DNA from: Eledone cirrhosa
Taxonomy: Eukaryota
Reading direction: 5' to 3'
NCBI GenBank assembly: GCA_964016885.1
Contig: OZ024753.1
Span: forward strand, 8,556,001 to 8,620,000
Length of the DNA stretch: 64,000 bases
Position 1 is the first letter of the stretch. Every line of letters starts with the position of its first letter. The translations under genes and the position numbers were made by a program. The notes under the pieces are model-generated. The model did no database searches. It was not told the origin of the DNA and worked only from the letters and a program-made list of their open reading frames with translations. Positions 42,787-56,450 of this stretch are shown here, piece by piece.

Positions 42787-42982
42787 ATATCAATGATATT
42801 AATAAATAAATTAATATTTATAAAACCATATTTATTCTATTATATATATTTCAAGAGTACCAAAACAAACTTAGTATTTTATCTGATGAGAGCGTACCAA
42901 AGTTTTGGTACCCTTGAAATATATATAATAGAATAAATATGGTTTTATAAATATAGTTTCCATTTATTAATATCATTGATAT
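42787..42982. repeat. Imperfect palindrome containing the 42875 hammerhead
   Basis: The left arm (ending ...atttcaagagtaccaaaac) is the reverse complement of the right arm starting at the stem II loop (gttttggtacccttgaaat...). Confidence 0.85.
42875..42935 (+). ncRNA. Minimal type I hammerhead ribozyme
   Basis: TATTTTAT-CTGATGA-GAGCGTACCAAA(GT)TTTGGTACCCTT-GAAA-T-ATAT-ATA-ATAGAATA. 8-bp stem I with one G-U; predicted cleavage after 42927. Confidence 0.85.
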
Positions 42983-43042
42983 ATATATATATGATAAGAA
43001 AATGCGATGTAGTTTCAGATGTTACACTCCTTTATTGATAAG

Positions 43043-43117
43043 GCTGTGATACATATTTCAATGACAACAGTGGCCACGTGATTCCACGTACCCACTGCTA
43101 TGACCTCATCAGACAGC
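43043..43117 (-). ncRNA. Type I hammerhead ribozyme with long stem II
   Basis: Minus strand reads GCTGT-CTGATGA-GGTCATAGCAGTGGGTACGTG(GAAT)CACGTGGCCACTGTTGTCATT-GAAA-T-ATGT-ATC-ACAGC, then AATAAA. AUC triplet. Confidence 0.85.
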
Positions 43118-43224
43118 TTCTTACATATAATGGTTACGTTCCCAAGGCAATCCAAATTGAAGCGACAAGGGAACAGACAAAGGTGATGTTCTTGAAGCCT
43201 TCGCCCGTATATGTATATATATGT

Positions 43225-43613
43225 GGAGGCACATGGCTTAGTGGTTAGAGCATTGGCCTTGCAATCGAAAGGTTGTGAGTTCAATTCTCAGACCGGGTGT
43301 TGTGTTGTTTCCTTGAGCAAAACACTTTATTTCACATTGCTCCAGTTTACTCAGCTGTAGAAATGAGATGATAGGGACTGGGGTCCCTATCATTCCACTG
43401 TAGAGTGGTCGTGGAGGTGCCACGGCAAAAAAAGCACCCAGCCCACACTGTAAAGTGGACGTGTAGGCGCCACGGAAAAAAAGCACCGAGCACTCACTGT
43501 AAATGAGGTTGGTGTTAGGAAGGGCATCCAGCTGTAGAAATCAAGCCAGAATCAGTTCCCGTCTCACCCTTGCAAGCAGGGAAAAGCGGACGTAAAATGA
43601 AATAATGATGATG
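43225..43613 (+). mobile_element. SINE family A
   Basis: Full-length copy with internal duplication. Confidence 0.9.
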
Positions 43614-44830
43614 TGTGTGTGGTTAGTTTATAATTCAACTAAGACTACCTGTGAAATATAATTAAAATTTAATGATATACATTTATAAAATAGCAATTGT
43701 AAATATACAAACATGAACACACACTTGTGTGTGGGTATGTGTGTGCCTGACTAGTTTATTATATAACTAAACTTATTATTATTAATTTAACTAAAAGTTA
43801 ATGGCATTTATAAACTACAGTTCCAGAGCAAAAGTAAGCAAGTGATGTCTGGTGCAGTTTCTGTCAGTTCATTCTTGCAATAAACAAAGGATTGAAAAAT
43901 ATCTCATGTTGATGCGCAGTCTGCGACTGGTGGAGTTTGTCACCAAAGTAGTAGTAGTAGTAATTTGAAGATGGTTGCATTTATCATGTAGATCACCAAC
44001 ACTAGGGAGATTGTCATGTCTTGGACACAACTGAAGGGTGCTCCCAATCCTTTTGAACCAAGATGTTAACTACTTATTTGCAACACAAGATTCCATCTTT
44101 TCTATAGAATACATGGAACATGTTAACATAATTTTTGTTTGTTCATTGCCCTTGTGAAAATTGCGTGCTTCTAATAAATTAATTTAAACATTTCAAAAGC
44201 AAGTTTAACAGAAATACTAAACCTAGACATTTTTCTCCTTTTCTTTTTGTTGTTAATTTGTTAATATTTTTCTTGCTTTAGTTAATAATACAACATAATA
44301 AACTTCCATGTCCTCAAGATTGTCTACAACTTTTTTAACAATGTTGCAGTTTTTGTTTCTTCTAACATCAAAGACGCCTGTGTCATAGGCTTCCAATTCC
44401 CCCCGCTATGGTATTCTTACAGAAATATTATTTACATAAAACATTGAACCTCATGTAGTGCCATATTTACTCTATCTAGCCCCTCTGTCACATCATCTTA
44501 CACTCCACTACAACAAAAACCATTGGTTGGTCCCTATTCCATGTGGAGCTCCTAGGTTTCAGCCTAGTCAACGTTAAGACTAGGAATAGCTGTATAAGAT
44601 GTAATTCCTGAGTTCCTATTCCTACCCAACCAATCTCCAAACTTACCTTTCTTACACAACTAATATCTTTCTCAAGAAAATAATGATTCTTACAACATTG
44701 TATGGTGTCTGACTCTTAATAATAAACTTGGTCATTGTGACTAGTCAAAATAAACCTAATACTTCTATATCAGAGTAACCATAACCCACCCCTGCTCCTA
44801 TATATTGTATACAGATGATAAAAATAACCT

Positions 44831-44892
<62 letters not shown>

Positions 44893-45161
44893 TTATATAT
44901 ATCTATAGTTCAGTGCATTATAGTGTGTTTATAGAATTAGCAACGTGTTATGTCAAAGCTAATCAGCAATACTTCAGTATAATGGCGCCAAAATGGTTAT
45001 TAATACTGAACATAAAAGATCATGTCTAGTACAAGACTGGTTATTAAACTTCTCAAAGATTTAACAAGAAAATAACATTTTCCCAATGAGACAAGATGGA
45101 TAGGAAGCAGACAAATATATATATATATATATATACATATATTTATATATACAATAGATGG

Positions 45162-45210
<49 letters not shown>

Positions 45211-45322
45211 AACGAGTAGGACCCTGACGGCTGAGCTCAAGCCGTTTCGACGGATAATTCTGGACTATATTGAGTACTTTGGTGCGTTATGGTCCATCTG
45301 GTTCCTTACCACATTTCCTTCG

Positions 45323-45373
<51 letters not shown>

Positions 45374-45530
45374 GAGGTTATATTTAATTTGTTGGGATTC
45401 AACAAGCTTAAAATTTTTTATAACTGATATAAAGCACTCAACAAGTTAGTGGAGTAAAGACTATCCAGGAAGCTCCAACCCTTAAGGTTGTCTTTTTTCC
45501 GGTTATGTCAATATTTATGAAACAAATCTG

Positions 45531-45596
45531 TATTTTATCTGATGAAAGCGCACCATAATTTGCCTTGGTTGCCCTTGAAATATATATAATAAAATA
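45531..45596 (+). ncRNA. Minimal type I hammerhead ribozyme (same family as 42875)
   Basis: TATTTTAT-CTGATGA-AAGCGCACCA...TGGTTGCCCTT-GAAA-T-ATAT-ATA-ATAAAATA. Flanks are homologous to the 42706-42980 copy. Confidence 0.82.
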
Positions 45597-45978
45597 AATA
45601 TGGTTTTATAAATATAGTTTCCATTTATTAATATATTGTGTATATATATATATATATATTTAAATATATATATTTATATATAGAGATTTATATAGATATT
45701 TTCTTCATCATCATCATCGTTTAATGTCTATGTTCCACGCTAGCATGGGTTAGATGGGAGTTGTCCCACTTAAGGACTTAAGGCCAGATTGGTCGGCTGA
45801 CCGTGTCTCACTTGTATATATAAGTATTTGCTCTACGGTTCTTATATAGCTGATATATATTTAGCCTTATCGAGCCCTCTTTGGATTTTAGTCTTCAAAT
45901 TTATTATTATTACTATATATATATATATACACAATAGATGTATATGTGTGTATATATATATATATACAATAGATGTAT

Positions 45979-46014
<36 letters not shown>

Positions 46015-46019
46015 CAATA

Positions 46020-54454: not shown

Positions 54455-55545
54455 CATCATCATCATCATCATCATCAGCGTTTAACGTCCGTGTTCCACG
54501 CTTGCATGGGTTTGGACGGGGGTAGTCCCACTTGAGGCAAGAGTGATTGTCTTGCTCGCATAGGACTGTCTGGCAGGTTTTCTACAGTTGGATGCCCTTC
54601 CTAACACCAACCACATTTACAGTGTGGGTCTGGGAGGTTTTTACCGTGTTGCCTACACGGCCACATTACAGCGTGGACTGTGTGTTTTTTTGTCGTGACA
54701 CCTACACGATCTCATTTGTTTCGGCCTCGATGGCGCGGCACCAACATAACTTTACATAGAACGGGGGGGTGTGGATCGGGTGGGGGTGGTGGGACGGGGT
54801 GTATTTGTTAGAGATGCCTACTGGCTGGAGTAGGTTTTACTATATATTTAGGTAAGGCGGGTCTTCTCTGTTACTGAGTACCGCCAAAGGTCTCGGTCCA
54901 GTGACATTGTCTTGGAGAGGTGTAAGTGTGTGATGTCGGAGTTTATCAGCTCGTCCCAGGTTTTTCTAGGTCTGCCTATTCCGTGACTACCGTCTATCTT
55001 TATTGCCCTGCACTTTGTTATACAGCTATCGACTTTCATGCGCATCACGTGTCCATACCAACGTAGCCTTCTCTCGAGTAAACAACATCTGATCCCTCTT
55101 ATCTCTAATTTATTCCTTAGTTCGTTTATGCTTTGCCGTTCACGTATATTACTGTTACACATCCAGCGGAGCATGCAAGCTTCGTTCCTCTCTAGTCTGC
55201 GTATATCCTCTGCACACAATGCCCAGGTCTCACTGCCATGCAGCATTGCTGTTCGTATGCAGGCATCGTACAACCTGCCTTTCATTTTTAGTGAGAACCC
55301 TTTAGCAGCTAATAGTGGTATAAGCTCTCTGAACTTTTTCCAACCAGTTCTGACTCTAGCTACAGTACTTTCAGAGCACCCTCCCCCACTGCTGATTTTA
55401 TCGCCCAGGTAACGGAAGCTGTCCACTATTTCTATAGAACCCTCTGCGCAATTGAAAGAGCTAGTAGTTTGTGGGCACTTGCTGCTACTTATTGCACCAG
55501 AGCACCGGCCACATGTAAAATCTATGTTCTTAGTTAGCCTACCTG
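54455..55545 (-). mobile_element. 5'-truncated RTE LINE (ORF C-terminus plus ~390-bp 3' UTR)
   Basis: [12 protein letters not shown]...[17 protein letters not shown]...[12 protein letters not shown]...GRPRKTW; UTR ends in (GAT)n. Confidence 0.92.
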
Positions 55546-55561
55546 TATATATATATATATA

Positions 55562-55626
<65 letters not shown>

Positions 55627-55732
55627 ATATATATATATATATATATATATAAACATATATATATATAAACATATATATATATATAAACATATATAAACAT
55701 ATATATATATATATATATAAACATATATATAA

Positions 55733-55765
<33 letters not shown>

Positions 55766-55766
<1 letters not shown>

Positions 55767-55930
55767 CCAACTGTCCTTATTCTAGATACTATGGCCTTGG
55801 AACACCCTCCTCCCATGCTAATCTGATCTCCTAGGTACCGGAAGCTATCCACCACTTCTATAGCGCCCTCCTGCATTTGAAAAATGTGTCTATCAATGCG
55901 ACTTCTACTGTCTAATTTCCCTGTACATCT
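55766..55930 (-). mobile_element. Fragment of a second RTE subfamily
   Basis: [30 protein letters not shown] repeats the homologous segment of the adjacent element; the two are separated by (TA)n. Confidence 0.8.
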
Positions 55931-55969
55931 ACTGCATACATATATATTTCTCCCTACCTGCTAGTTTGC

Positions 55970-56008
<39 letters not shown>

Positions 56009-56060
56009 ATATATATATAAACATATATATATAAACATATATATATATATATATATATAA

Positions 56061-56120
<60 letters not shown>

Positions 56121-56137
56121 ACATATATATATATATA

Positions 56138-56182
<45 letters not shown>

Positions 56183-56394
56183 ATATATATATATATAAAC
56201 ATATAAGCAAAAAAGTGTTGGTAAAATCCAGTACTTCAGTATGCAGATAGGGAGCACTTAATGACGATATAGATTCCGGAGTTATAATAGTGACGAAACA
56301 TAAGTATGAACTCATATTTGTATGAGCTCATAATCCTTGACTCTAAAACCATCAACACCAAAAAACCAGAGCTAGTATATCTAAGAACTTACTA

Positions 56395-56450
56395 ACTGCC
56401 TGATGAGGTCACAGCCATACAATGGCTATCATCGAAATATATATAGCGGT
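56395..56450 (+). ncRNA. Minimal type I hammerhead ribozyme (same family as 12-66)
   Basis: ACTGC-CTGATGA-GGTCACAGCCAT(ACA)ATGGCTATCATC-GAAA-T-ATAT-ATA-GCGGT-A-AATAAA. Lies between inverted arms at about 56285-56335 and 56459-56500. Confidence 0.85.

Follow-up and report, generated by a model that had tools for sequence, protein, structure and literature searches.

Why should a ribozyme stem keep an unpaired base at one fixed height? The question is raised by a 64,000-nt stretch of Eledone cirrhosa DNA (contig OZ024753.1, positions 8,556,001 to 8,620,000 of the forward strand; hereafter the window), which contains several hammerhead ribozymes with C opposite C at the fourth pair of stem II. 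An initial annotation regarded these copies as unrelated families sharing a selected mismatch, perhaps a tertiary contact between stems I and II or a protein site, that defined a distinct subclass. We find that they are the pseudo-long terminal repeat (pLTR) ribozymes of one lineage of endonuclease (EN)-bearing Penelope-like retrotransposons (PLEs), and that the 5' base of pair 4, C10.4, is the sole invariant base of stem II in a representative set from this lineage. The mismatch is a clade-specific ribozyme feature, and neither a new system nor a case of convergence. Purifying selection on the unpaired C10.4 is likely, judging from comparison of the sequences.

A relaxed hammerhead-frame scan of both strands of the whole window returned seven good matches, at 17-61(-), 42883-42927(+), 43048-43112(-), 45539-45588(+), 56400-56445(+), 62233-62271(-) and 62650-62688(-). 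In every one of them three pairs are followed by the mismatch, after which pairing is restored. A further, poor match at 4842-4914 was discarded for its broken core. The copy at 46206 (core at 46262, minus strand) is present with AAA-C/C-TTT, and was absent from the scan because its first stem I pair is U·U. Each of the six C·C sites of the initial annotation, like its C·A copies, was found at the coordinates stated there. An Rfam search of the window gave no hammerhead match at the gathering score or at E ≤ 10. The copies and their associated pieces are as follows.

12..66, minus strand: type I hammerhead of subfamily B1, with a CUGAAGA core and the C·C mismatch at 51/32; the 3' end of its PLE pLTR extends past the window start.
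42791..42869, minus strand: inverted partial pLTR 3' end (hammerhead 3' half and tail), which in reverse matches the 45539 copy at 87% identity across 82 nt; to judge from this match, it is the usual inverted, 5'-truncated PLE fragment.
42875..42935, plus strand: type I hammerhead of group A, GAG-C/C-CTT, C·C at 42893/42912, with an 8-bp stem I and an AUA triplet.
42936..42977, plus strand: PLE 3' tail, common to group A copies when these are compared, adjoining a (TA)n run.
43043..43117, minus strand: type I hammerhead of subfamily B3, GGT-C/C-ATT, C·C at 43102/43063, with a long stem II and an AUC triplet.
45531..45596, plus strand: type I hammerhead of group A, AAG-C/C-CTT, with the mismatch C·C at 45549/45573; the shared tail comes next, then (TA)n.
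46208..46270, minus strand: type I hammerhead of group A', AAA-C/C-TTT, C·C at 46252/46231, decayed at the U·U of stem I pair 1.
56395..56450, plus strand: type I hammerhead of subfamily B2, GGT-C/C-ATC, C·C at 56410/56430.
62222..62282, minus strand: type I hammerhead of a homogeneous C·A subfamily, GGA-C/A-TCC, with C at 62261 and A at 62248; this subfamily is linked to an open reading frame (ORF) in locus L152.
62367..62421, plus strand: inverted third C·A copy (at 62375), missing from the initial annotation.
62638..62700, minus strand: copy of the C·A subfamily found in the window scan, with loop III AGGT (a point change).

These copies are not unrelated. Those at 42883, 45539, 46262 and around 62 kb have a common stem I, stem II GTAC/GCAC arms and 3' tails, the 12-66 copy matches the one at 56395 with 85% identity across 67 nt, and the linked ORFs described below belong to one PLE clade. 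All window copies carry U after GAAA, loops ATAT, ATGT or AGGT, and triplets AUA or AUC, as had been reported, but the trait fails as the mark of a subclass. U after GAAA and the AUH triplet amount to one trait, because A16.2 pairs with U15.2 (23 of the 24 representatives described below; C-G in the remaining one), and RUH and GAAAY belong to the ordinary hammerhead consensus (PMC7936874). A member subfamily of about 1,800 matches has C after GAAA and a GUC triplet instead. Two local arrangements were also noted. At 42770-43117, a single (TA)n run is flanked by facing PLE 3' ends of group A (+) and B3 (-), and at 62180-62700 the three C·A copies and fragments form a rearranged cluster that includes a local inverted repeat and is surrounded by (TA)n.

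The pair-4 states were counted by pattern search of the 3.0-Gb genome. The counts are pattern matches that include inverted duplicates at one insertion, and subfamilies with CUGAAGA or CUGACGA cores fall outside the frame. The unforced frame CTGATGA...GAAATATNTATH gave 57,920 matches (control, 50), of which 49,928 were C·C; the reversed-pattern control for C·C gave 0, so the pattern is not due to chance. A 5' C opposite a non-C base was found in 4,553 matches, only 291 of them C-G, and the C-G copies listed were scattered single changes spread over subfamilies. A 5' non-C base opposite C was found in 3,237 matches, a copy-level loss of the 5' C of 6.1%.

Counted by eye, C·C was present in 89 of the first 100 unforced matches listed, and among the first 100 C/non-C matches listed about 43 belonged to one homogeneous C·A subfamily, that of the 62-kb copies, and 6 to a second C·A subfamily. 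The first 100 non-C/C matches listed were scattered changes, many of them C-to-T, with no amplified subfamily lacking the 5' C; about 20 were artefacts of a second CTGATGA in the loop. A separate pattern with 1,815 matches recovered mostly a C·U subfamily, the one with C after GAAA and the GUC triplet, and a group B pattern gave 16,174 matches genome-wide. Strict C·C, as originally described, therefore does not hold, since two amplified subfamilies have C·A and one has C·U; the partner of C10.4 in amplified subfamilies is C, A or U and never G. The contigs of four sequencing runs, compared with one B1 copy, showed no variant of at least 5% at either pair-4 position, a comparison of near-identical copies that is uninformative on deep conservation. 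A single inverted insertion (L359, G000:C1:22657556-22657794) has arms that are unlike at pair 4, one C·C and the other C·A.

Conservation along the stem was examined in 230 copies. After setting aside 61 from patterns that forced a non-C·C state, 169 were clustered on all positions but pair 4. In the 16 clusters with at least two copies, the 5' base of pair 4 was C in 16/16, and the 3' base was C in 14, U in 1 and A in 1. Pair 4 was paired in none of the 16, while pairs 2, 3, 5 and 6 were paired in 16, 15, 16 and 16, and pair 1 in 13. The flanking pairs therefore covary around a retained mismatch, as had been claimed. We then took 24 representatives of our own choosing, one per cluster plus singletons. 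C10.4 (column 19) was their sole invariant stem II column, and pair 4 was unpaired in 24/24, with changes on both sides at 12/14 pairs. The covariation score was 0.612, against 0.305 for shuffled alignments, a test that relatedness inflates, and at most 0.163 for slid ones. Pair 1 was GC in 4, GU in 6, AU in 7 and unpaired in 7, so the motif of three pairs, C·C and resumed pairing describes the window copies but not the entire lineage. A register with an extra base after A9 was rejected, as every slid register pairs far worse.

The same representatives define a type I hammerhead that is open at stem I, with a core invariant in 24/24 and covarying stems I-III. The stem II region spans 20-47 nt. 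Stem III consists of two pairs with a palindromic loop (UAUAUA, UAUGUA or CAUGUG). Because of this two-pair palindromic stem, and by analogy with the hammerheads described in PMC4209133 and PMC6765202, cleavage most likely takes place in the dimer form, on transcripts of tandem pLTRs.

The identity of the carrier elements was established from ORFs found upstream of six different hammerhead types, which makes the ribozymes part of PLE pLTRs and the window copies remnants of PLE 3' ends. The ORFs encode a reverse transcriptase (RT), a Cys-rich linker and, at the C terminus, a GIY-YIG domain; L041 and L042 show a CxC...C...C linker and a GIY-YIG-like motif, which are invariant in A1. Of 8,000 scored candidates, 192 were homologues of the ORF, many with PF26215, some with PF00078, and two from Argonauta hians. 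A Pfam search with three PLE ORFs and one ORF fragment gave no match. The loci that link ORFs to ribozymes are as follows.

L135: tandem pLTR-ORF-pLTR of the 12-66 subfamily (B1).
L143: ORF with a long-stem hammerhead downstream, related to the 43043 copy (B3).
L152: ORF with the C·A hammerhead type.
L138: C·U type, with ORF end and 3' untranslated region about 80-90% identical to other C·U loci.
L041, L287, L295 and L044: ORFs with group A hammerhead types.

The link between ORF and hammerhead in L149 was not confirmed. In the tandem copies L135 and L138, about 250-300 nt separate the hammerhead, which is inside the pLTR, from the start of the ORF downstream of it. The distance from the hammerheads to the 3' end, which adjoins (TA)n, is 40-70 nt, and close inverted pairs are frequent. 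Two marks of the Neptune clade (see PMC8557442), a Cys-rich linker between RT and GIY-YIG and microsatellite targets, are both found here, which makes the elements putative members of that clade. A search of viral contigs revealed no PLE relative (8 pattern matches, 0 of which passed the hammerhead scan), and a metagenome scan with a single protein gave no match.

The linked RT/GIY-YIG ORFs are 37-90% identical among nine rows. Groups A and B do not align beyond the ribozyme, yet their proteins do. In a protein tree of 26 rows, which leaves out 15 of 41, the carriers fall in one clade with 93/97 support, together with P0001, P0005 and two Argonauta proteins, and a FastTree of 109 rows recovered the same clade with a support of 0.96. 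The Argonauta elements concerned, P0072 and P0098, are predicted to have C opposite C, A or U at pair 4. Conservation of the mismatch is thus by descent. On the protein tree of nine rows, no change is needed for the 5' base of pair 4, whereas each of the seven remaining 5' positions in stem II needs 2-4, although the stem varies in length from 20 to 47 nt; this agrees with the cluster result. The 3' base needs 3 changes, one of them the single-copy C-G of L044.

Hammerheads outside the clade differ at this position, and the unpaired pair 4 is therefore the mark of one lineage. A second PLE-hammerhead group in the same genome (14,291 matches; GAAACC-NNN-GG-UA stem III; e.g. L240-L269, L306-L309) has A-U at pair 4 in 27/27 rows, three of which are nested-core misreads, and a variable or mismatched pair 1; its ORFs lie outside the clade that carries C opposite C, A or U. 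The 78 metagenome loci of related PLEs (L154-L231) include 28 that yielded 25 distinct hammerheads, using a filter that tolerates one mismatch, and pair 4 is paired in 25/25. Among 56 rows of PLE hammerheads in Fig. S3 of PMC4209133, a set with no cephalopod, inspection by eye found C·C at pair 4 in none, one C·A (S. purpuratus) and one U·U (Clonorchis). As a separate observation, 17 of the 25 metagenome hammerheads have U·U at stem II pair 1 (10.1·11.1), where G-C is usual. In a minor group (L323, L330, L336, L340-L346), pair 1 is U·U, stem III reads CAUAUG and pair 4 is C-G or U-G. It may show the ancestral paired state; attempts to link an ORF to it found none.

Purifying selection is the best reading of these data, because without constraint a base outside any pair would be expected to change more quickly than bases held in pairs. 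We propose that pair 4 of stem II became a 1x1 mismatch in an ancestor of the lineage, and that purifying selection in transposing copies would have kept C10.4 unpaired ever since, opposite C, A or U but not G. The original suggestion of selection is thus likely to be correct, given the persistence of the C across proteins of 37-90% identity, but it does not extend to strict C·C or to a subclass of unrelated families. The free C would serve a specific contact, either in the packing of helix II on helix I or in binding by the element's own protein. On this comparative evidence, C10.4 probably makes a base-specific contact of some kind; a contact to RNA is a serious candidate, short of probable, and a contact to protein is more doubtful. 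Packing of the helices is plausible because the mismatch is level with the end of a canonical 4-bp stem II, the point at which that stem meets stem I (PMC7936874). A protein site is plausible because the PLE hammerhead described in PMC11167929 cleaves only with PLE protein, while being dispensable for insertion in vitro. Tentatively, C10.4 may be a lineage-specific recognition element, a flipped or protonated C by which helix II is docked on helix I, or which the element's RT/EN protein reads.

Several observations weigh against selection for a contact. No conserved partner nucleotide was found in stem I or the flanks. At the level of single copies, loss of the 5' C (3,237 matches) exceeds loss of the core base G5 (1,028, 2.0%), an excess that is attributed in part to CpG decay and nested-motif artefacts. 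Many cluster members were fetched with a pattern that forces C·C, although the unforced count gives the same picture. The zero-change result is weak alone, with a mean of 2.7 changes elsewhere on nine rows (Poisson P ~0.07), and L149 is one of these rows. Moreover, the free protein tree does not recover Group 1, the carriers of the mismatch, as strictly monophyletic (2 changes), although the approximately unbiased test does not reject their monophyly (p-AU 0.219). Two structural candidates were tried and rejected. Several group A subfamilies have, nine bases upstream in stem I, a G that could form a Watson-Crick pair with C10.4, but this G is missing in other subfamilies and in group B. In an alternative fold, seen in the 56400 copy, the 3' strand of stem II pairs with the GAUGA of the core, but this is impossible in most subfamilies.

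The best surviving alternative is that the mismatch does nothing but weaken stem II, giving a ribozyme that is slow, or dependent on a dimer or protein, without any base-specific contact. In silico closure of pair 4 stabilized the stem II hairpin by 5.8-6.7 kcal/mol in 11/12 representatives, and raised the probabilities of pairs 2 and 3 from about 0.3-0.95 to above 0.95 in most. The weakness or mismatch of pair 1 in 7/24 representatives and the tolerance of C, A and U at the 3' base suggest the same. For mere weakening, however, any mismatch would do, yet the 5' base is always C and its position is fixed, which makes this explanation unlikely.

A neutral ancestral mismatch might instead have been copied passively into all subfamilies. 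The carriers do form one clade, transposon copies share ancestral quirks, and the tree-based count has few rows. This passive inheritance would have to span proteins down to about 40% identity, and groups A and B between which loops, stem lengths and flanks cannot be aligned. An unconstrained unpaired base should change fastest, yet this one is the only invariant base of the stem, and in many subfamilies it precedes G, forming a CpG that is readily lost in dead copies. We consider passive inheritance slightly less likely again than simple weakening.

The C could also be kept for an overlapping DNA or RNA signal of the pLTR, such as a promoter, splice or priming site, with no role in the ribozyme, given the position of the hammerhead inside the pLTR, at the distances stated above from the ORF start (in L135 and L138) and from the 3' end. 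The context of the C varies by subfamily (AAGCG, GGACG, GGTCA, GATCA, TGTCA), however, and because the surrounding bases differ, a structural site fits better than a linear motif; the site also lies outside the ORF, and coding constraint was rejected for the same reason. Such a signal is highly improbable. Convergence of unrelated hammerhead families into a separate subclass is barely credible, since, despite the unalignable flanks of groups A and B and their unproven strict monophyly, the linked ORFs form one clade and C·C is absent from the second group, the metagenome relatives and the published rows of PMC4209133.

Several known hammerheads come close to the present ones. Those that Cervera & de la Peña 2014 (PMC4209133) describe from PLEs, with variants in Aedes, Drosophila, rotifers and Saccoglossus, are alike in having type I topology with a CUGANGA/GAAA/UH core, a palindromic stem III of two pairs, a long helix II and a pLTR location, as well as in occurring mostly as dispersed, 5'-truncated copies and close inverted pairs. 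Compared with the minimal hammerhead (min-HHR) consensus given there, the present ribozymes have no unpaired base between A9 and 10.1, have G10.1-C11.1 in only 4/24, and have the invariant unpaired C at pair 4. The variants of Lünse, Weinberg & Breaker 2017, as cited in PMC6765202, are alike in their diminished stem III, PLE association and dimer cleavage. The Poseidon PAc hammerhead of Anolis (PMC11167929) is likewise a pLTR hammerhead of an EN-bearing PLE, and a precedent for protein-assisted cleavage. Its ORF starts in stem II, in contrast to the distance of about 250-300 nt found here, and the available text of PMC11167929 makes no mention of a stem II mismatch. Canonical metazoan type I hammerheads (Schistosoma, retrozymes; Rfam models) have the same core and topology, but a 4-bp stem II, a terminal loop contacting stem I and short tandem repeats, unlike the 20-47 nt stem II and lack of Rfam matches here. 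A mismatch in stem II throughout a family has a precedent in the axolotl HHR_Amex2, where U·U stands at the base of that stem (PMC7229834). Our literature search turned up neither a description of the present mismatch nor one of PLE hammerheads from octopods; the sequences of Lünse et al. 2017 were outside the comparison.

According to PMC4209133 and PMC7761336, the hammerheads of PLEs lack tertiary contacts, are weak in vitro and have an unknown role. A single non-core base that equals the core in invariance throughout a lineage of deep divergence offers a precise handle on what the ribozyme needs beyond that core. If the contact is real, the 'minimal' PLE hammerhead would gain the kind of peripheral activating contact that its class is said to lack, and the subfamilies that naturally have C·C, C·A or C·U, together with their cognate ORFs, would form a series for studying how a PLE protein switches the ribozyme on. 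Rfam misses well over 50,000 copies of the hammerhead in this one animal genome.

Other repeats are present in the window. The tRNA-like heads of a repeated element resembling a short interspersed nuclear element lie at 35743-35800(-), 41448-41505(-) and 43234-43291(+), followed by tandem units of 49-50 nt. At 37939-39362, a 75-bp unit is repeated 19 times in tandem with an open frame, which presumably resembles the C-terminal end of the ORF of an RTE-type long interspersed nuclear element (LINE). Broken, microsatellite-interrupted LINE-like ORF fragments with no credible Pfam match were found at 54848-55960(-) and 48592-49017(-). Minisatellite arrays with periods of 72, 133, 82 and 60 bp occupy 31542-33057, 59552-60839, 23368-23932 and 18204-18739, respectively.

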